From Nitrospirota bacterium (GTDB taxonomy: Bacteria; Nitrospirota; Thermodesulfovibrionia; Thermodesulfovibrionales; SM23-35): a stretch of 64,000 nt of DNA. The notes beneath the pieces were generated by a model. The model was not told the DNA's origin and did not search any database. It saw only the letters and a program-made list of their open reading frames with translations. This document shows positions 2,997 through 34,719 of this stretch, in pieces (within the stretch, counting starts at the first letter, position 1; each line of letters starts with the position of its first letter). A program made the position numbers and the translations under genes. The stretch lies in the NCBI GenBank assembly GCA_014859105.1, contig JACUUX010000002.1, forward strand, positions 34,118-98,117. Reading direction: 5' to 3'.

Positions 2997-3152
2997 AGAG
3001 ACCTCCGCTATAGATTATCGTAAGATAATTTATTTATATATATATGTCAAGATATTGCAATGAATCCTTTAAAAGCGGCTTGAGATATAAGATGGGTGGT
3101 GTTAAGATAAAACGTCTGGATCCCTAACAATATTTACACATGCTATACCAGC

Positions 3153-3222
3153 TGTCATTCCCGCTTGTCGGGAATCTTTCTTTAGCGATTTGAAGAAAGA
3201 TGCCGGACAAGCCGGCATGACA
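3153..3222. repeat. Family A palindromic element
   Basis: tgtcattcccgcttgtcgggaatc..(A/T-rich centre)..gccggacaagccggcatgaca. The two outer arms are inverted repeats, and each arm contains its own small hairpin. Confidence 0.8.
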
Positions 3223-3248
3223 ACAGTGGCGGATGTATTTTCGGGTCA

Positions 3249-10080: not shown

Positions 10081-10140
10081 ACAGTCATCAGTCAACAGTC
10101 ATTAAAAAACTATTGACTATTGACCGGTGACCAGTGACTA
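10081..10140. repeat. Family D: inverted arrays of heptad-phased GTCA/TGAC units
   Basis: cagtcat cagtcaa cagtcat - aaaaaac - tattgac tattgac cggtgac cagtgac. A second copy of this type lies at 37042-37106. Confidence 0.7.
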
Positions 10141-10145
10141 TATTT

Positions 10146-11816
10146 ATGAGCTATTTAGTACTTGCAAGAAAATGGAGACCGCAGAGTTTTGATGAGCTGA
10201 TAGGTCAGGAGCCCATAACACGTGTCCTGAAAAATTCTATTGAGCAGGGCAGGATTGCACATGCCTATCTCTTCTCAGGGCCAAGAGGAGTCGGTAAAAC
10301 ATCTACTGCAAGGATACTTGCAAAAGCTTTAAACTGTAAAAACGGTCCAACATCTATGCCATGTGGCATATGCACTTTTTGTACATCGATAACTGACGGT
10401 TCTTCTGTTGACGTGATGGAAATAGACGGGGCATCAAACAACAGCGTAAATGATATAAGAGACCTGCGTGAGAGGGTCAAATATGTGCCTTTGGCCGGAA
10501 GATATAAGGTTTATATAATCGATGAAACCCATATGCTGTCTGATGCTGCCTTTAATGCACTGCTGAAGACACTTGAAGAACCTCCTCCTCATGTAATTTT
10601 TGTCCTTGCAACAACATCTCCTAAAAAAATACCGCCAACGGTACTCTCACGCTGCCAGCATCTGCCTTTTAAAAGGATAGCAAATTCTAAAATAAGAGAG
10701 AGATTAAGAATGATATCAGATGCCGAGGGCATAAATATTTCGTTTTCGGCAATTGAGATGATTGCAAGGGCTGCTGACGGAAGCCTGAGAGATTCACTGA
10801 CTATACTGGATCAAATCTCATCCTTTTCCTCCGATATCAGTGAATCCGATGTAAAAGACCTGCTCGGCATAACAGACTTCGGACTTCTTTCACAACTTGC
10901 CGCAGCTCTGATTGAGGGTAAAAGAGAAGATATAATAAATATTTCAAACGAACTCGCAGAAAAAGGTACTGATATAAGGGCTTTCACAAAAGAACTTATA
11001 CAATTTTTCAGGGATATGCTTGTCGCGAGTGTTGTAAAAAAGCCGGAGGAAATACTTGACAGTGGTAATGAAGAACTGGATATGATTAAAAACATTTTAT
11101 CAAAGACATCCGAGGAGCAACTTACTCTTTTACTCTCTGAATTACTGAAGGCAGAAGTTGATATCAGAAATGCATCGTCTCCTCGCCTTACTTTTGAGAT
11201 GTTACTTTTAAAGACGAGTTTTCTAAGTGAGATCAAACCTGTCAAGGAAATTATAGAAAATATGGAGTCCTTTATAAAGCTCGCTTCAGAGAAAGAAAAT
11301 AATCCCCCCTCACCCCCCTTTAGTAAAGGGGGAATGGGGGGATTTGAAAGGTCACTTTCAGAAGAAACCGGAAGCGTTGGACAGGCATTGCCGGATCAGG
11401 AGACTGAAAATGAGATTCCAGAGCATGTTGCACAGGAATTAAAAGACAAACTCCCGGATGATTTATCAGTCACAGATGATATATTGAACAAAGCTATATC
11501 AAGGCTCGACCCGCCACTTGCATCGAAATTATCAAAGGCCAATTTTAACCTTAATGACAACAAACTGATTATAACCCTCAACGAAGGGTACTCGTTATTT
11601 GCGGATTCCATTAAAAATAATGCAGGTTCTATAGAGAAAATATTTTCAGAAGAATTTAAAAATAATATCAAAATAGAAGTAGAAGTTGCAAAAAAGAAGG
11701 CTGTCCGTAAAAAAGACATTAAGGAAAAAATGCTGACGGAACCGTTGATCAAAGAGGTTCTGGAGCTTTTTGAAGGCAGGATTGTGGATGTGAGGCCGAT
11801 AAAAGACAGTAAGTGA
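10146..11816 (+). CDS. dnaX: DNA polymerase III subunit gamma/tau
   Basis: LARKWRPQSFDELIGQE; Walker A GPRGVGKTS; zinc module CKNGPTSMPCGICTFC; Walker B/DEAD-like IIDETHML; SRC motif. ATG at 10146 preferred over GTG at 10134. Confidence 0.93.
   Translation: MSYLVLARKWRPQSFDELIGQEPITRVLKNSIEQGRIAHAYLFSGPRGVGKTSTARILAKALNCKNGPTSMPCGICTFCTSITDGSSVDVMEIDGASNNSVNDIRDLRERVKYVPLAGRYKVYIIDETHMLSDAAFNALLKTLEEPPPHVIFVLATTSPKKIPPTVLSRCQHLPFKRIANSKIRERLRMISDAEGINISFSAIEMIARAADGSLRDSLTILDQISSFSSDISESDVKDLLGITDFGLLSQLAAALIEGKREDIINISNELAEKGTDIRAFTKELIQFFRDMLVASVVKKPEEILDSGNEELDMIKNILSKTSEEQLTLLLSELLKAEVDIRNASSPRLTFEMLLLKTSFLSEIKPVKEIIENMESFIKLASEKENNPPSPPFSKGGMGGFERSLSEETGSVGQALPDQETENEIPEHVAQELKDKLPDDLSVTDDILNKAISRLDPPLASKLSKANFNLNDNKLIITLNEGYSLFADSIKNNAGSIEKIFSEEFKNNIKIEVEVAKKKAVRKKDIKEKMLTEPLIKEVLELFEGRIVDVRPIKDSK
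11301..11345. repeat. Family B palindromic element lying in frame inside dnaX
   Basis: aatcccccctcacccccctttagtaaagggggaatggggggattt is 45 nt (15 codons) and encodes NPPSPPFSKGGMGGF. Near-identical intergenic copies lie at 18662 and 21246. Confidence 0.8.
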
Positions 11817-11948: not shown

Positions 11949-12016
11949 TGTTATTCCCGCCTGTCGGGAATCCTTCTTTAAAACGAAGAAAGATTCCGGA
12001 CAAGCCGGAATGACAG
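11949..12016. repeat. Family A palindromic element
   Basis: tgttattcccgcctgtcgggaatccttctttaaaacgaagaaagattccggacaagccggaatgaca. Confidence 0.8.
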
Positions 12017-12075
12017 GGACAAGTTAACCCAAAAATGCATTATTTGGGTTAATGTAAGACATAAAATAACCAAGA

Positions 12076-17382: not shown

Positions 17383-17592
17383 CTGTCATTTCGGATTGTC
17401 CGAAATCCTTCTTTACGATTCCGAACAAGTCGGAATTTTTCTGGATGCCCCGATCGAGTCGGGGCATGACATATAAAAAAGAAGTCATTCCACGGCTTGA
17501 CCGGGGAATCCACCCTTCGACAGGCTCAGGGTGACATTGTCATGGTGAGCTTGTCGAACCATGGATTGCCCGATCGGGGTCGGGCAATGACA
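17383..17592. repeat. Cluster of at least three family A-type palindromic elements
   Basis: ctgtcatttcggattgtccgaaatcc..ttccgaacaagtcggaat; gccccgatcgagtcggggcatgaca; gtcattccacggcttgaccggggaatcc; ttgcccgatcggggtcgggcaatgaca. Confidence 0.8.
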
Positions 17593-17662
17593 GAATAAAA
17601 GATCTTTGAGGATTAATAGCATAATTGTATGCAAATTGTGGACTAAGATAAAAATTTGAAAA

Positions 17663-18661: not shown

Positions 18662-18707
18662 TAATCCCCCTCAGTCCCCCTTTAGTGAAGGGGGATTAAG
18701 GGGGATT
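18662..18707. repeat. Family B palindromic element (intergenic copy)
   Basis: taatccccctcagtccccctttagtgaagggggattaagggggattt. Confidence 0.8.
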
Positions 18708-18747: not shown

Positions 18748-18808
18748 CTGTCATTCCCGCTTGCCGGGAATCCTTCTTAAGAAAGATTCTGGACAAGCCA
18801 GAATGACA
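18748..18808. repeat. Family A palindromic element
   Basis: ctgtcattcccgcttgccgggaatccttcttaagaaagattctggacaagccagaatgaca. Confidence 0.8.
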
Positions 18809-18929
18809 AGAATAAGGTAACCATGTAGCAAGACTACAGAGAGAATATCGAGTTCAAAACTGTCTTGAATTTAGAAATTTTGAATTTAAAATTTGTTTAG
18901 TATTTAGATATTAGATTTTAGGATTTAAA

Positions 18930-21233: not shown

Positions 21234-21245
21234 CAATTAATCAGT

Positions 21246-21322
21246 AATCCCCCTACATCCCCCTTTAAAAAAGGGGGAATTTATGAATACCCCTCTTTTA
21301 TAAAGAGGGGCAAGGGGAGATT
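21246..21322. repeat. Family B palindromic element plus a second CCCCTCTTT/AAAGAGGGG hairpin
   Basis: aatccccctacatccccctttaaaaaagggggaatt followed by acccctcttttataaagaggggcaaggggagatt. Confidence 0.75.
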
Positions 21323-27387: not shown

Positions 27388-28497
27388 ATGTGCAGACTGG
27401 CCGCAATAACATCAAGAAAATACTTTTCACCTCTGGAAAATATCCTTGCCCTTGAGACAATGAAAGAAGGTCACGACGGGTCAGGTCTTGGCCTGACACT
27501 TAAAGACCTCGGTGGCGAATTTGAAGATCTTAAAGGATACCCTATTCTTTCGGGTATATGCTCTAAAGAGGGGGCCAGAACACTCGATGCATTTATGGAT
27601 AAAGCGGGTTTTAAATTGAAACATGTCTGGGCACCAAAAATAAAACTATTAAAAGGCATAACGCCCCGAGATCATTATTTTGCAAGGGTATATGATTATC
27701 CAAAATCATATAAAAACAAAACAATCAAAGAAAAAGAAGATCTCCTGATGAATATGCGCCTTGCACTCAGAAAGATCGGCGAACCTGACGAATCAATTTT
27801 TGTTTTTTCATTCTATCCTGATGTAATCACGCTGAAAGAAGTTGGTGACCCGCTTCAACTTGCCGAATTTTTTAACCTTGATAAAGCCAACCTTAAGGCG
27901 AAAATCATTTTTGCACAGGGCAGGCAGAACACAAACTATACAATCTATCTTTACACATGCCATCCTTTTTTTATACAGGGATATTGTTCCATGACAAATG
28001 GTGAGAACACAGCATTTGTTCCTATAAGGGAATTTTTAATGAGCAGAAAGTTCCCTGGTTATATCGGTTATAACAGTGACAGCGAGGTATTTACTCATAT
28101 CCTTCACTACACAGCACGTCAACTGGGGTTACCGCTGACTTATTATAAGGATGTAATCACACCACTTAAAGAATCAGAAATCAAATTCAGGGGAGACAGG
28201 GAAGCACTGAGATTTCTCAGGCAGTCCCTGAGGCCCCTCTGCATAGACGGGCCCAATGTTGTTATCGGATTTACTCCTGATGGAAGATGTTTCATGGTTC
28301 ATGACTCCAAGAAATTGAGGCCCGGTGTTGTTGGAGGGATAAAGGGTAAATTTGCATTAATGTCTGAGGAATGTGGACTTGACAGAGCAATATCTGAGAG
28401 GGACAGGTCAAAGGACATATTTCCGATGAAATACGATATGGTGATCGTACAACCTCAGGCAGAGGAGGTGGAGGTATGGAATCAGCTACAAAATTAG
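27388..28497 (+). CDS. Glutamate synthase, stand-alone class-II (Ntn) glutamine amidotransferase subunit (archaeal-type GltB domain 1)
   Basis: Starts MC, so Cys2 is the Ntn nucleophile. MCRLAAI...GHDGSGLG. 369 aa. The following genes encode the FMN and GXGXG domains. Confidence 0.75.
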   Translation: MCRLAAITSRKYFSPLENILALETMKEGHDGSGLGLTLKDLGGEFEDLKGYPILSGICSKEGARTLDAFMDKAGFKLKHVWAPKIKLLKGITPRDHYFARVYDYPKSYKNKTIKEKEDLLMNMRLALRKIGEPDESIFVFSFYPDVITLKEVGDPLQLAEFFNLDKANLKAKIIFAQGRQNTNYTIYLYTCHPFFIQGYCSMTNGENTAFVPIREFLMSRKFPGYIGYNSDSEVFTHILHYTARQLGLPLTYYKDVITPLKESEIKFRGDREALRFLRQSLRPLCIDGPNVVIGFTPDGRCFMVHDSKKLRPGVVGGIKGKFALMSEECGLDRAISERDRSKDIFPMKYDMVIVQPQAEEVEVWNQLQN

Positions 28498-30137
28498 ATT
28501 ATAACCATCAACTCTCATTAAAAGAGTTACCGTATATAATCCGCTGGAGAGGGGATAGATGCACGAGTTGTGGCAGATGTACTGCAGTCTGTCCTGTAAA
28601 GGCGATCGAGCCTGCTGTTAAGGTTCATAGGATTGTCCAATCTGAGGGGTTCATTCCCACACCTTCTGCGGTAAGAAAAATCGTACACGTCATTGAACAG
28701 GTAGCGGACCTGGACAGGTATTGCACCGGATGTGGAACCTGTACATTAGTTTGCCCTAATGACGCTATAGAGCCTGAATACAACCCCCATAACAAATTTC
28801 TTTATTTTAAAAACAGGGGTGGTGAAGGATACAAAAGGGGTGGCAGGAGGAACGACCCGTCAATATCAACCCTCGACAGGCTTAAATTTACAAGGATTTC
28901 AATGCTTACGGATCCTGCTCTTGATGCGGGAAGACATGAGTTCCGCGTGAGGACGCTGCTTGGCCGAATCCTTCCACCAGAAGAACTTCCTTTGAAAAGA
29001 GTTAACGGCAAACTCATGGTTGATAAAGAAAGTAGTAAATTTATTCCACCTGTCAGGGAGATATTTCCTATCATAATTGGAAGCATGTCACTTGGTGCAC
29101 TTTCACCCTCCATGTGGGAGGGGCTCGCAATGGGTGTCGCATATCTCAATGAGGTCGAAGGTCTTCCGGTGGTCATGTGCACAGGTGAAGGTGGTGTACC
29201 TCCTCGCCTTTTAAAATCAAAGTATCTCAAATACTTTATAGTCCAGATTGCATCAGGATATTTTGGATGGGATGAAATTATACACGCTATACCTGACATG
29301 GTTGAAGACCCTGCAGGTATTGAAATAAAATACGGGCAGGGGGCAAAGCCGGGTGACGGTGGATTATTGATGGCACAAAAGGTTCTTAAACTGATTGCCG
29401 GTATCCGTGGTGTGCCTCAATTTGTTGACCTTGCGTCACCCCCTACACACCAGACAAAATATTCTATCGAAGAGGCTGTAGCAAAGATGATCCAATCCAT
29501 GTCCATGGCGTGGGGCTTCAGAGTCCCGGTCTATCCGAAAATTTCCGGTACAAAAACAGCAAGGGCAGTCCTTAATAATCTTGCCAGAAACCCATATGCT
29601 GCAGCGCTTTCCATCGACGGAGAAGACGGAGGCACAGGTGCTGCATATAACGTGTCTATGGATAAAATGGGTCACCCCATAGCATCAAACCTGAGGGAAT
29701 GCTATCTCGACCTTGTTAGACAGGGAAAGCAGAATGAACTGCCTCTTATTGCAGCAGGTGGTGTTGCTAAGAAAGGTAATCTGGCTGCTAATGCAGCTGC
29801 TCTCATAATGCTCGGGGCCTCTGCTGTCTCTGTTGGTAAATATATCATGCAGGCAACAGCAAATTGCTTCGGCGATGAATACAATCGCTGCAACCTGTGT
29901 AATACCGGTAAATGTCCAAGGGGTATAACTACACAGGATCCGAAATTATACAGAAGACTCGATTCAGACAAAGTGGCTGAACGTCTTGTTGAAGTCTTCA
30001 AGGCTGCTAATGTGGAGATGAGGAAGATTTTTGCACCAATGGGCAGGAGTACCGAATTGCCGATAGGAATGTCTGATGGATTAAGTATAGATGATAAGGC
30101 AATGGCAGAGAGGTTGGATATTAGTTATGCGTGTTAA
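28476..30137 (+). CDS. Glutamate synthase FMN/central-domain subunit with N-terminal 2x[4Fe-4S] ferredoxin
   Basis: CTSCGRCTAVCP and CTGCGTCTLVCP. GltS FMN-domain motifs GAKPGDGG, SPPTHQ, DGEDGGTGA and AAGG. Confidence 0.8.
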   Translation: MESATKLDYNHQLSLKELPYIIRWRGDRCTSCGRCTAVCPVKAIEPAVKVHRIVQSEGFIPTPSAVRKIVHVIEQVADLDRYCTGCGTCTLVCPNDAIEPEYNPHNKFLYFKNRGGEGYKRGGRRNDPSISTLDRLKFTRISMLTDPALDAGRHEFRVRTLLGRILPPEELPLKRVNGKLMVDKESSKFIPPVREIFPIIIGSMSLGALSPSMWEGLAMGVAYLNEVEGLPVVMCTGEGGVPPRLLKSKYLKYFIVQIASGYFGWDEIIHAIPDMVEDPAGIEIKYGQGAKPGDGGLLMAQKVLKLIAGIRGVPQFVDLASPPTHQTKYSIEEAVAKMIQSMSMAWGFRVPVYPKISGTKTARAVLNNLARNPYAAALSIDGEDGGTGAAYNVSMDKMGHPIASNLRECYLDLVRQGKQNELPLIAAGGVAKKGNLAANAAALIMLGASAVSVGKYIMQATANCFGDEYNRCNLCNTGKCPRGITTQDPKLYRRLDSDKVAERLVEVFKAANVEMRKIFAPMGRSTELPIGMSDGLSIDDKAMAERLDISYAC

Positions 30138-32607
30138 AAAAACAGAAGGCAGAAGTCAGAAATCAGAAGTCAGCCCCCTCACCCACCCCTCCCCCTCGAG
30201 GGGGGAGGGCAAGGGTGGGGGTGTCATCATACGCGGCACGTTAAATAGGACCCGGGTTTCATCCCGTATACTTGAGGAACAGATACAGCAGGCGGTAAGA
30301 GACGGTGCAGGAGAATTGCATATAATAGCAGACGGACAACATGGTATCGGTGGCAGAATCTGGCCGAGGGGAAAGATTATAAAGATAACAGTTGAAGGGC
30401 CTGTTGGCCAGAGGCTCGGAAGCATGGGGATGTTCGGCACAGAGATTCTTGTAAAGGGAAGTGCTTCTGATGATGCTGGCTGGATTAACTGTGGCGCCAG
30501 AATAACCGTTTTGGGAGATGTTACCAACGGCGCCTTTAATGCTGCGGCGCAGGGAATTCTTTATGTTCAGGGAAGCGGTGGTGCAAGATGTGATACAATG
30601 ACAAAACACAACCCGCGTTTTGATCCCCCACAGTCGTGGTATTTCAGAAATGTCGGAGACTCCTTCGCAGAATTTAAAGCAGGTGGCATAGCGGTTGTGT
30701 GCGGTGTTAACCCGAGGAATTCACAAAACATACTCGGATATCGCCCATGTGTTGGGATGGTTGGAGGAACAATCTACTTCAGGGGCCCGATTAAAGAATA
30801 TAGCGAAAGAGACGTTAAACTCCTCGATCTTACGCAACAAGACTGGGAATGGCTTAAGACAAATATAAAACCATATCTTGAGGCTATTGACCGGATGTCA
30901 TACTATGAGGAACTTACCCGTTCACCTGATGAATGGAAAAAATTCATTGCCTATACACCGCAGGAAAAAAGGTCAAGAAGATGGTTCAAGATATCAACCT
31001 CTGACTTCAGAAAAAATTTCAGGGAGAAGGAGGTCGGTGAAGGCGGCATATTTGCACCATATCTGAATCACGAATTCACATTGTTACCTTATATAACAAC
31101 AGGAAAAGACAGGCGTAATAAGCCTGTATGGGCCAACGAGAAATATTCACCACCCTGTGAATATAACTGCCCGACACATATACCGTCTCATAAAAGGGCA
31201 TCACTCATAAGACAGGGCAAACTTTATGAAGCTATTGAATTAGTTCTGCAATACAGTCCTTTACCCGCAACAGTATGCGGACAGATATGTCCAAATTTAT
31301 GCATGCAGAGTTGCACAAGGGGAAAATTCGACAATCCATTGAGCATTAACAAACTGGGAAGTCTGGCATTAAATATTCCGGCTCCGAAGAGAGATGATCC
31401 TACAGGGCATACAATAGCTGTTATCGGAGGAGGACCGGCAGGGTTAAGCGCCTCATGGCAGCTTGCCCTGAAAGGTCATAATATAGGTCTTTACGAAGCC
31501 ACTGATAAGCTTGGCGGAAAACTTGAACTCTGTATACCCAGAGAGCGTCTGCCACAGGAAATACTTCAAAAAGAACTTTCAAGGTTTAGAGAGATGGGCG
31601 TTAATATTTATCTCAATGAAAAAGTAGACCAGAAAAGATTTGAAGAGATTTATAAAAATCATGAAATAGTCATTGTTGCATGCGGAGCTCATAAGCCAAG
31701 GGTTATTCCTTTCTCTGGTTCTGAACATGCTGTTACTGCTTATGACTTCCTCAAAAACGCAAATACAGGTAATCTGCCAGACCTTAAAGGCAGAAAGATT
31801 GTTATCATTGGTGCAGGAAATGTGGGTATGGATGTTGCTTCCCAGGCATATAACTGTGGTGCCGAGTCTGTTATAGCTGTTGATATACAGAAACCGGCAG
31901 CTTTCGGTAAGGAGATGGAAACAGCCGTATCAAAAGGCACACAAATAATCTGGCCCAAGTTTACGGAAAGATACGATAACAATGAAAAGAAACTGTACTT
32001 CAAGGACGGCACATTACTTGATGCGGATCTTGTCATTATTTCAGTGGGTGATATCCCGATACTCGACTTTCTTCCGCCGAGCATACATACAGAGAGAGGA
32101 TGGATAACAGCAAATGAGATCGGACAGACATCTGATGTTAAGGTCTTTGCCATAGGTGATGCTACAGTACCGGGTCTGGTGACACATGCTGTCGGTCAGG
32201 GAAGGATTGCTGCAGAATACGTCCACTATCAGCTCTCAGGAAGGGTTTATAAATATGAGAAGAAGCAGGTGATACCTTATGAAAGGGTTAGGACGGTCTA
32301 CTATGAAGCAGAACACAGAATACAGACCCACCCACCCACCCCTCGAGGGGGGAGGGCAAGGGAGGGGGTGGAGGTCTGGACTCTTGAGTCTGAACTCAGT
32401 AAGAGTGAGGCAGAGAAGTGCATGTCCTGTGGCACATGCCGCGACTGTCATATGTGCGAGATAACCTGTTACTGGGGTGCAATCAAAAGGATTGAACATG
32501 AAAACGGCTCTTACGAGTATGTAGTCGATGACGACAAATGTATTGGTTGCGGCTTTTGCGCAGGCATCTGCCCCTGCGGTGTCTGGGAGATGGTGGAGAA
32601 TATATAA
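30127..32607 (+). CDS. Fusion of the glutamate synthase GXGXG (GltB C-terminal) domain, a GltD-like NAD(P)H oxidoreductase and a C-terminal 2x[4Fe-4S] ferredoxin
   Basis: GQHGIGGRI...GSMGMFG...GDVTNGAFNAAAQGILYVQGSGGAR. GltD Fe-S region CPTHIP...CGQICPNLCMQSC. FAD fold VIGGGPAGLSA. C-terminal CMSCGTCRDC and CIGCGFCAGICP. The ATG at 30127 overlaps the upstream stop. Confidence 0.8.
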   Translation: MRVKKTEGRSQKSEVSPLTHPSPSRGEGKGGGVIIRGTLNRTRVSSRILEEQIQQAVRDGAGELHIIADGQHGIGGRIWPRGKIIKITVEGPVGQRLGSMGMFGTEILVKGSASDDAGWINCGARITVLGDVTNGAFNAAAQGILYVQGSGGARCDTMTKHNPRFDPPQSWYFRNVGDSFAEFKAGGIAVVCGVNPRNSQNILGYRPCVGMVGGTIYFRGPIKEYSERDVKLLDLTQQDWEWLKTNIKPYLEAIDRMSYYEELTRSPDEWKKFIAYTPQEKRSRRWFKISTSDFRKNFREKEVGEGGIFAPYLNHEFTLLPYITTGKDRRNKPVWANEKYSPPCEYNCPTHIPSHKRASLIRQGKLYEAIELVLQYSPLPATVCGQICPNLCMQSCTRGKFDNPLSINKLGSLALNIPAPKRDDPTGHTIAVIGGGPAGLSASWQLALKGHNIGLYEATDKLGGKLELCIPRERLPQEILQKELSRFREMGVNIYLNEKVDQKRFEEIYKNHEIVIVACGAHKPRVIPFSGSEHAVTAYDFLKNANTGNLPDLKGRKIVIIGAGNVGMDVASQAYNCGAESVIAVDIQKPAAFGKEMETAVSKGTQIIWPKFTERYDNNEKKLYFKDGTLLDADLVIISVGDIPILDFLPPSIHTERGWITANEIGQTSDVKVFAIGDATVPGLVTHAVGQGRIAAEYVHYQLSGRVYKYEKKQVIPYERVRTVYYEAEHRIQTHPPTPRGGRAREGVEVWTLESELSKSEAEKCMSCGTCRDCHMCEITCYWGAIKRIEHENGSYEYVVDDDKCIGCGFCAGICPCGVWEMVENI
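30143..30222. repeat. Composite repeat inside the coding 5' end: 4 heptads (cagaagN) plus a family E GC-rich palindrome
   Basis: cagaagg cagaagt cagaaat cagaagt cag + ccccctcacccacccctccccctcgaggggggagggcaagggtgggggtg. Translated as RSQKSEVSPLTHPSPSRGEGKGGG. Confidence 0.8.
32327..32372. repeat. Family E GC-rich palindrome, second in-frame copy in the same gene
   Basis: cccacccacccacccctcgaggggggagggcaagggagggggtgg. Translated as THPPTPRGGRAREGVE, between the GltD-like domain and the terminal ferredoxin. Confidence 0.8.
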
Positions 32608-32612
32608 ACAAA

Positions 32613-32862
32613 GGGGCCAAGGATTCGAGGGTTCGAGGATTCAAGTGAACTGCTCACGAAAACCATATAAGAGGTTGTATTTAGCGTCATTCCCCGACTT
32701 GATCGGGGAATCCAGAAAAAACTGGATTGTCCGGTCAAGCCGGACAATGACAACATATACATTGAATGTGGCAGTGCTTATAAAATTCTTAACAAGAAAC
32801 AGGATTCAAGTTTCTCAATTTCTTAAACCCTTGAATCCTCGACCCCTTGGATCCTCGAATCC
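32613..32862. repeat. Nested composite: family C arms (ggattcgagg/ggattcaag units) flanking a family A element
   Basis: Left arm 32613-32647: ggggccaaggattcgagggttcgaggattcaagt. Family A element 32685-32752. Right arm 32801-32862, inverted: aggattcaag...ccttgaatcctcgaccccttggatcctcgaatcc. Confidence 0.75.
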
Positions 32863-32896
32863 TTCTGATACCTTTTTAAAATGAGATAAAACTTAA

Positions 32897-34414: not shown

Positions 34415-34582
34415 TTCCCCCGCAAGAACAATAAGCAAGGCAGCTTTTTTATGCTGTTACCTCCAGAAATTCGGGCTTATCTGACCTATCCAGGATTATT
34501 CACAAACTATGTCCTGTCTATACCCGAGAAAATTTATTCTATTAATTTTCAAAGATTTAAAAAAACATTTAATATCTTTTAT

Positions 34583-34719
34583 TCTGTCATTGCCTGACCC
34601 CGATTGGGCAATCCATTCCACCAATTGTCATGCTCCGACCTGATCGGAGCATCCAGAAAAATAAGGTCTGTATTAGGAGCCTGCCCCGTACTTGATACGG
34701 GAGTCAAGCCGGATAATGA
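34583..34719. repeat. Cluster of family A-type palindromic elements
   Basis: ctgtcattgcctgaccccgattgggcaatcc; ttgtcatgctccgacctgatcggagcatcc; gcctgccccgtacttgatacgggagtcaagccggataatgac. Confidence 0.75.

Follow-up and report, generated by a model that had tools for sequence, protein, structure and literature searches.

A glutamate synthase (glt) fusion gene in a 64,000-nt stretch of DNA from a Nitrospirota bacterium carries, at two places and in frame, copies of a short GC-rich palindromic repeat of the BoxC type. The stretch, referred to here as the window, is C48:34118-98117 of a metagenome-assembled genome (MAG) of 3.16 Mb, 148 contigs and 40.3% GC (G000; two further genomes, G001 and G002, share its genus). 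The two segments are most probably insertions of the repeat that are read through as linkers of the host protein, and they form part of a wider invasion of genes by such elements. Related copies lie in frame in other genes of the same genome, and copies in other genomes favor certain reading frames. We infer that the copies are translated and that they are selfish or neutral. The features on which the argument depends are as follows.

30127 to 32607, plus strand: host gene, 826 aa, in one open frame that spans 30091/30127 to 32607.
30143 to 30173, plus strand: left heptamer arm of copy 1, CAGAAGT x4.4 (Tandem Repeats Finder, 87% matches), translated (T)EGRSQKSEV.
30174 to 30223, plus strand: copy 1, an intact four-arm palindrome (nhmmer E = 7.7e-14) that reads SPLTHPSPSRGEGKGGG.
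32309 to 32326, plus strand: left heptamer arm of copy 2, CAGAACA CAGAATA CAGA by sequence, translated (E)HRIQ.
32327 to 32370, plus strand: copy 2, a worn palindrome (nhmmer E = 7.6e-11) that reads THPPTPRGGRAREGV.
32371 to 32399, plus strand: right heptamer-like arm of copy 2, GAGGTCTGGACTCTTGAGTCTGAACTCAG by sequence, translated EVWTLESELS.

The host protein combines, by Pfam, a GXGXG domain (GltB3-like), Fer4_20 and Pyr_redox_2 domains (GltD-like) and a C-terminal 2x[4Fe-4S] ferredoxin (Fer4_7). Its homologues number more than 5000 and carry annotations such as NADPH-dependent glutamate synthase beta-subunit-like or FAD-dependent oxidoreductase protein of Nitrospirota; their names point to Nitrospirota/Thermodesulfovibrionales as the source lineage. 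The two copies share a 32-nt block at 97% identity (30192-30223 and 32339-32370), and a common core, the 21-nt CTCGAGGGGGGAGGGCAAGGG, is exact at 30195-30215 and 32342-32362, both copies lying where the initial annotation of this DNA placed them. Shuffled sequences contained 0.01 matches to this core on average, and two or more matches were found in 0 of 100 shuffles. Copy 1 is built as CCCCCTCACCC-ACC-CCTCCCCC-TCGA-GGGGGGAGG-GCAA-GGGTGGGGGTG, while in copy 2 the G-rich arm is intact (GGGGGGAGGGCAAGGGAGGGGGTG) and the C-rich arm has decayed to (CCCA)3CCCC. No frame of the repeat arms is broken by a stop codon; copy 1 is read in one frame, as SPLTHPSPSRGEGKGGG, and copy 2 in another, as THPPTPRGGRAREGV. 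The encoded peptides are those that the initial annotation quoted (..SPLTHPSPSRGEGKGGG.. and ..THPPTPRGGRAREGVE..), and the predicted junction peptides of copy 1 are SQKSEVSPLTHPSPSR (upstream of VIIRG) and GGGVIIR, those of copy 2 IQTHPPTPR and EGVEVWTLESELSK. As direct repeats of 32 nt, the copies lie 2147 nt apart, a spacing not divisible by three, and if they recombined, most of the gene would be lost and the frame of what was left would shift.

The account that best fits these features is that both glt segments belong to a small interspersed repeat that is non-autonomous. The core of this repeat is a G/C palindrome of about 50 nt with four arms, arranged as an outer C arm, an inner C arm, a CTCGAG center, an inner G arm and an outer G arm, and optionally bracketed by inverted arrays of 7-nt units. 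The element would have entered the glt fusion twice, once in the N-terminal spacer just past a stop/start overlap and once in the linker ahead of the C-terminal ferredoxin. The gene would have stayed intact because the arms are free of stops in any frame and both inserts are in frame, and the repeats would be transcribed and translated as Pro/Ser/Gly-rich, probably disordered linker peptides.

The copies differ in their state of preservation. Both had been described as hairpin-forming, which holds for copy 1 (-40.7 kcal/mol, z = -3.1; -45.9 kcal/mol, z = -4.2 for the 88 nt that include the heptads) but not for copy 2, whose fold (-24.9 kcal/mol, z = -0.5) is no better than those of shuffled sequences. 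The left heptamer arm of copy 2 pairs with 32371-32399 in a 101-nt fold. The array of four cagaagN heptads ahead of copy 1 is present, but one of its units is CAGAAAT. Neither copy matches an Rfam family; the one nearby signal, WsnRNA46 at 32674-32763, scores 28 bits and falls short of the 65-bit cut-off. On the favored account, copy 1 is young or well kept, still forming a strong hairpin, and copy 2 was already present in the ancestor of a five-member clade, its hairpin decaying while its frame is kept.

The reading of copy 1 depends on where translation begins, and here the gene immediately upstream is informative.

28476 to 30137, plus strand: ferredoxin and Glu_synthase (FMN, GltB2-like) gene, 553 aa (Pfam PF01645, E = 7e-61, plus Fer4 families).

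The stop codon of this gene (30135-30137) lies 37 nt ahead of copy 1 and is overlapped by the host ATG, the overlap being 11 nt (ATGCGTGTTAA). Direct reading of the sequence bears out that no in-frame ATG, GTG or TTG occurs from copy 1 to the TTG in GELH, from which a start at 30127 with read-through of the repeat had been deduced. The deduction is supported by an alignment of 119 orthologues (71-86% identity; 120 sequences with the query), of which 117 begin at the same ATG with M[RHPS][AV]K, that ATG again overlapping the upstream stop (ATGCGTGYTAA); of the two exceptions, P0072 is called from the start of the domain and P0042 is partial. Between this start and the conserved VTIHGxxNGxRVPSRILEEQIQ, the orthologues have linkers of 0-57 aa (median 31), all in frame, and in the six glt fusion genes that were compared as DNA the linker is 75-129 nt long, always a multiple of three and free of stops. 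An untranslated spacer of such variable length would lose the frame in two thirds of lineages, so that translation from 30127 very likely passes through copy 1.

An alternative possibility is that copy 1 is untranslated, with a rare non-canonical start (ATC or ATA in VIIRG) served by the G-rich arm (GGAGG / GGGGGTG) as a ribosome-binding site, which would make the repeat an intercistronic hairpin between gltB2 and gltB3 in the manner of repetitive extragenic palindromic (REP) sequences. The placement of the repeat just past the upstream stop is the classic one for an intercistronic REP, the hairpin is very stable (-41 to -46 kcal/mol), ATC and ATA codons follow the repeat directly, and in the DUF559 genes discussed below the third G arm seems to hold a GTG start. 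Against this stand the conserved overlapping ATG and the frame kept in 117 of 119 orthologues, linkers that are open and change length only in multiples of three, the stop-free, in-frame DNA of the six linkers, the single orthologue that is called from the domain start (the other exception being partial), and minimal-linker orthologues (MRAKKTAPAVTIHG) that have no alternative start. A start downstream of copy 1 is therefore very unlikely.

The same alignment indicates that the inserts are lineage-specific. Copy 2 was found, as first placed, in the linker between the GltD-like domain and the ferredoxin, at residues ~732-748 between Pyr_redox_2 (429-692) and Fer4_7 (770-819). It is a lineage-specific indel confined to the query and its closest orthologues, P0001, P0002, P0004 and P0005 (79-86% identity; 5 of 120 sequences); the other 114 orthologues have a short YYDxC-RGDFTP-EQEAxKCMSC linker at this site. 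The right arm of copy 2 is likewise kept in the four insert-carrying orthologues and missing from the 114 insert-free ones. Among the five carriers, copy 2 takes four different lengths, always in frame, with a nearly unchanged G arm and a drifting C arm. The protein tolerates copy 2. At the N-terminus, the region of copy 1 is the hypervariable linker of 0-57 aa, with no homologous residues. Of the two outcomes that the initial annotation named as refuting, homologous residues in repeat-free relatives and a start downstream of copy 1, each was decided in favor of its reading. Two further observations concern the copy 2 site. The P0001 gene (L036) has a 27-nt hairpin (..CCCTGCCCGACAGATGGCAGGCGGGCC..) nested in the central loop of copy 2, in frame and adding PLPDRWQAG, which is a palindrome inserted within a palindrome. 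In addition, the Cys of the conserved YYDxC motif, just ahead of the ferredoxin domain, is Glu in all five carriers of copy 2 (window ~32312, the E of YYEAE).

These comparisons also bear on whether the inserts could be artefacts of assembly or binning, that is, chimeric joins at repeats. The source is a MAG in many contigs, and short GC-rich repeats can mislead assemblers. Nevertheless, the assemblies of the repeat-carrying relatives are independent (JGI, NCBI, ENA and Logan) and hold the same in-frame inserts at the same sites, the inserts differ by point substitutions as vertical descent predicts, and the flanks on both sides come from one conserved gene. The probability of an artefact is accordingly negligible.

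The glt gene is not the only host. A profile search of the genome (nhmmer, E < 1e-4) found about 21 loci of the family, and the genome-wide count proposed in the initial annotation places 10 of the 21 copies in frame within housekeeping genes. All ten lie in sense orientation in open reading frames (ORFs) of more than 350 aa; the PSPxRGEGKGGG frame accounts for eight of them and the PPPRGGRAREGV frame for two. Besides glt, the hosts by Pfam are EPSP synthase (AroA), LpxK, MnmA, CobB/CbiA, LeuRS, FGAR-AT/PurL, dihydroorotase (PyrC) and a class I/II aminotransferase (CobD-like), and in these eight further genes Pfam domain matches flank the insert on both sides. Several host genes hold additional peptides of palindrome type. 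When GC-rich hairpins of all families are counted (stem of at least 8, C arm first), 72 of 163 lie in ORFs of at least 200 aa. The suggestion that in-frame colonization operates in this genome is thus borne out by both counts. Its companion claim, that insertions are tolerated at domain boundaries, describes the glt copies, which sit in linkers, but not the family as a whole: the copies in AroA, the LeuRS editing domain, LpxK and the PurL N-domain lie inside Pfam domains, so that insertion is not limited to boundaries.

Other palindromes of this genome may be recorded here. The G/C hairpins are strongly polar genome-wide, with 163 having the C-rich arm first and 18 the G-rich arm first. One of these hairpins lies in the window, the palindrome TAATCCCCCCTCACCCCCCTTTAGTAAAGGGGGAATGGGGGG (11300-11341); it sits in frame in a DnaX-like (DNA polymerase III gamma/tau) ORF of 560 aa (10134-11816, plus strand), where its peptide is NNPPSPPFSKGGMGGF. 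Two related copies, at 18662-18703 and 21245-21286, appear to lie between genes.

The element extends well beyond this genome. A 37-mer, CCCTCCCCCTCGAGGGGGGAGGGYRAGGGWGGGGGTG, was found in 114 stretches of other species-representative genomes, mostly Nitrospirota/Thermodesulfovibrionia, with carriers outside the phylum in Syntrophaceae, Syntrophorhabdus, Bdellovibrio, Dongiaceae, another alphaproteobacterium, Acidiferrobacterales and an anammox MAG. Mis-binning was considered as a source of the cross-phylum matches and ruled out, since the GC content of the carrier contigs is 45-67% outside Nitrospirota and 39-43% within. Some of these genomes preserve the full anatomy, such as (ACAGAAN)n-palindrome-(NTTCTGT)n at L048, which explains the heptads beside both glt copies. 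In the 80 of the 114 stretches that were examined, which contain 83 copies, 73 copies (88%) lie in ORFs of at least 200 aa, compared with 79% for random positions in the same loci. With orthologous sites collapsed, these 80 loci represent 44 host families and 56 events. The sense frames are PSRGEGxGG (30 events), PRGGRxREGV (7) and LEGGGQGRG (1), and the antisense frames LPPRGGG (10), PLEGEG (7) and PPSRGR (1), a distribution that is far from uniform (chi-square ~62 with 5 degrees of freedom, by our own calculation). As a mechanism of insertion cannot sense the reading frame, the bias in frame and orientation is read as selection on the encoded peptide.

A rival reading is that the repeats are kept for a function, either as RNA or DNA structures (hairpin, G-quadruplex or triplex) that tune translation, mRNA stability or co-translational folding at domain junctions, or as selected flexible Pro/Gly linkers. 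The hairpin of copy 1 is intact and strong and stands 48 nt inside the coding sequence, just after the upstream cistron, and its G arm, GGGGGG A GGG CAA GGG A GGGGG, fits a four-run G-quadruplex motif. The G arm of copy 2 is kept across five orthologues while its C arm decays, exact copies elsewhere show no depletion from genes (88% against a baseline of 79%) and a strong bias in frame, and the same loops are re-occupied in different lineages. On the other hand, most orthologues do without either insert, copy 2 persists although its hairpin is lost, and the linker elsewhere holds unrelated palindromes, heptads or nothing. The frame bias is explained equally well by purifying selection against frames that contain Cys, Trp or Leu, and for TM_ECO, an Escherichia coli repeat of the BoxC type, Holder et al. 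(2015, PMC4666352) saw neither a triplex that was stable in vivo nor any activity as promoter or terminator. A retained function is, on this evidence, decidedly unlikely.

The re-occupation of loops is seen at two sites. Palindrome-derived peptide is present in the N-terminal linkers of 27 of the 120 glt sequences (8 of the copy 1 type and 19 of a 45-nt C6/G6 type), the remaining linkers being of heptad type or of other low-complexity sequence. In the six genes compared as DNA, both palindrome types stop at the identical base, just before GT(A)TGTCAYCATACGCGGC, and each palindrome is preceded by its own heptads (CAGAAGN, AGAGCTA or GTCAATA). In AroA (G000:C60:51058-51112 and L155-L162), the turn between LGVxI and LxIxGKG holds a CTCGAG-centered element with ACTCCGA heptads in G000 and G005, a C6/G6 palindrome in G001 and G004, and no insert in G002, G003, G006 and G026. 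This pattern does not track taxonomy, as G000, G001 and G002 belong to one genus and show three states. Different palindrome families thus occupy the same loops in close relatives. Either survivorship is strong at a small number of permissive loops, or palindromes or heptads that are already in place attract further insertion or replacement.

Several observations weigh against an account in terms of inserted, tolerated repeats. No target-site duplication or clean pair of empty and filled sites was found (glt copy 2, query against P0012; AroA, G000 against G002), the flanks being too diverged, and at the glt copy 2 and AroA sites a few ancestral residues have been replaced and not just interrupted. 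Nor are genes poor in exact-match copies, as might be expected were the element purely selfish. The AlphaFold2 model (39-sequence alignment) assigns residues 1-31 and 735-769 no secondary structure (pLDDT, a per-residue confidence score, ~30), which agrees with the inserts being unstructured surface loops, although the model is poor (mean pLDDT 55, predicted template-modeling score 0.46). A stronger version, in which the CTCGAG-centered palindrome is targeted to, or selectively retained in, coding DNA and is not mere tolerated junk, is kept in play by the 88% of intragenic copies in more than 40 genomes of several phyla, by the skew in frame and by the repeated occupancy of loops; we regard it as rather unlikely. 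Were it true, insertion or replacement would be directed by structure, homing to hairpin or heptad sites and possibly driven by DUF559 nucleases, and a unit of 50 nt would be spreading horizontally between phyla.

How the element moves is a separate matter. The leading candidate for a mobilizing enzyme is DUF559, a Vsr-like PD-(D/E)XK nuclease whose genes stand between three-arm forms of the repeat; the connection is one of association, and we put it forward tentatively, at somewhat less than even confidence. In the source genome, DUF559 genes or gene fragments have three-arm units of the family immediately on their 5' side at C100, C42, C136, C14, C51 and C7, and the product of the gene at C100:97969-98292 matches PF04480 (E = 1.6e-41), with 3HRL as the nearest solved structure. 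In relatives, ~25 of 27 strong DUF559 loci have a unit of the form [C arm-loop-G arm-N3-G arm] 18-70 nt upstream and an inverted unit 8-50 nt downstream. DUF559 is patchy in 40 relatives (0-19 copies, often broken), and its copy number correlates with that of the repeat across 41 relatives (Spearman 0.54, p = 3e-4). The E. coli gene ycjD also ends in such a unit, with BoxC ~170 nt downstream. No description of a link between DUF559 and BoxC was found in the open-access literature.

The candidacy of DUF559 faces evidence to the contrary as well. No DUF559 gene was found by tblastn in the 80 loci with CTCGAG-centered copies (539 kb), and four relatives have the repeat without DUF559 (G001 with 4 copies, G016 with 5, G018 with 3 and G036 with 8). 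The two ends of the gene are alike in design and are not exact inverted repeats, and the bracketing holds for the family, both glt copies being solo. The palindromes might instead be mobilized by a REP-associated tyrosine transposase (RAYT), an IS200-type Y1 HUH enzyme, as REPs and REPINs are. Five Y1_Tnp matches occur in the genome, of which the one at C138 is strong (E = 1.3e-42), and REPs are likewise short GC-rich palindromes (PMC4666352). Nevertheless, C-run/G-run palindromes are missing from the flanks of all five Y1_Tnp loci, compared with the flanked DUF559 genes in ~25 of 27 loci, and these elements lie largely within genes, unlike the extragenic REPs and REPINs. RAYT mobilization was rejected on the missing flanks and retains only a very slight probability. 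A motif of ~26 nt, GGTAATGTCAAAAGTTTCATGGAAAA, precedes both a Y1_Tnp gene (C113, upstream of 1352) and a multi-copy DUF559 unit (C14:31810, C42:142070, C51:9300), and may be a promoter or another repeat.

In its architecture, the element follows the G/C-rich intrastrand-triplex repeats BoxC/PIT/TM_ECO, with a C-rich arm, a loop, a G-rich arm, a 3-nt loop and a second G-rich arm. Tested with one stem mismatch allowed, copy 1 (window 30187) fits the TM_ECO pattern CCCTCNCCC-N3-6-GGGNGAGGG-N3-GGGNGAGGG apart from a single mismatch in the third arm, whereas copy 2 no longer fits because its 5' arm is too worn. Exact matches to the pattern number 19 in the genome, and 35 sites match with at most one mismatch. 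Examples of exact matches (CCCTCTCCCCTTGCGGGAGAGGGTTAGGGTGAGGG) are C122:2482, C127:5322, C42:141688 and C136:25755, and some form the 3' flank of DUF559 genes. Palindromic four-arm forms also occur in E. coli, and intrastrand triplex formation in vitro is a property of BoxC/TM_ECO (PMC4666352). As a BLAST search with copy 1 gave no significant match in 5,426 E. coli genomes, the relation to TM_ECO is one of pattern and architecture. The two also differ in location: all 23 TM_ECO copies in E. coli K-12 are intergenic, with no mobility gene nearby (Holder et al. 2015, PMC4666352), whereas 10 of 21 copies are in frame here and 88% of the 37-mer copies elsewhere are intragenic.

In its behavior, the element is closer to the Rickettsia palindromic elements (RPEs; Ogata et al. 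2000, 2002, as summarized in PMC10969869), whose hallmark is the in-frame colonization of genes. RPEs are palindromic repeats of which many lie in frame in unrelated housekeeping genes and others between genes, and they add a short peptide without destroying the host protein, as is the case here. They differ in size (~100-150 bp, against a Nitrospirota core of ~50 nt, or ~100 nt with heptamer arms) and in range, being known from Rickettsia, whereas a near-identical 37-mer occurs here in several phyla. The Nitrospirota element is, moreover, extremely G/C-rich in a genome of 40% GC and has the three- or four-arm BoxC/TM design. The likeness to RPEs drawn in the initial annotation therefore stands for behavior, with copies in frame and hosts intact, but not for architecture or membership: organism, size and composition set the element apart.

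Further comparisons are instructive. With REPs and REPINs the element shares short, GC-rich, imperfect palindromes in tens of dispersed copies and a gene bracketed by inverted copies of the presumed cognate repeat. The bracketed gene is, however, that of a Vsr-like PD-(D/E)XK nuclease (PF04480; PDB 3HRL) and not an HUH Y1 transposase, and REPs are extragenic. Compared with miniature inverted-repeat transposable elements, the element is itself an inverted repeat, and no duplication is visible at the glt and AroA sites, given their diverged flanks. The short tandemly repeated repetitive (STRR) sequences of cyanobacteria are tandem heptanucleotide repeats, and small dispersed GC-rich palindromes in these organisms nest in one another. 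Tandem 7-nt units (CAGAAGT, ACTCCGA) and nested tiny GC-rich palindromes recall them, but here the heptads form inverted arms round a palindrome and are translated with a 21-nt (7-aa) period (RSQKSEV, TPNSELR). No account of these elements in Nitrospirota was found in the open-access literature; the type of event is ordinary, and what appears undescribed is the family of sequences, together with its preference for genes and its spread across phyla.

The surroundings of the glt fusion are also rich in repeats. Upstream, the ORF of 369 aa that precedes the GltB2-like gene has no Pfam match. Downstream, the spacer of 290 nt (32608-32896) between the glt fusion and a sigma-54 activator gene consists almost entirely of repeats: an inverted pair of heptad arrays, GGATTCGAGGGTTCGAGGATTCAAG (32611-32645) and its complement (32830-32864), encloses two GTCATTCC..GGAATCC hairpins at 32686-32751. 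No spacer separates the two genes in the orthologous loci L036-L040, five in all, where they adjoin or overlap. A second family of REP-like hairpins, moderately GC-rich (TGTCATTCCCGCnnGnCGGGAATC / ..GGAATGACA), has many copies, all between genes as far as checked, at the following window coordinates.

582-685: second REP-like hairpin family.
3152-3236: second REP-like hairpin family.
11949-12029: second REP-like hairpin family.
17384-17606: second REP-like hairpin family.
18749-18822: second REP-like hairpin family.
32686-32751: second REP-like hairpin family, in the spacer described above.
34571-34662: second REP-like hairpin family.

REP and BoxC sequences are taught as extragenic, short, GC-rich palindromes. 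In contrast to this textbook view, a unit of the BoxC type lies here in frame in core enzymes, and its exact copies in other genomes are mostly intragenic. Selfish DNA inside genes, known from Rickettsia, would thereby extend to free-living anaerobes of several phyla, and such elements would naturally supply proteins with disordered linkers and make orthologues vary in length. The segments inflate the apparent divergence of proteins and can mislead the annotation of start codons and domain boundaries, and they mark permissive insertion sites in enzymes. Ultimately, if DUF559 were confirmed as the partner of this family, a mechanism would be at hand for the BoxC/TM repeats of E. coli, which are orphans at present.

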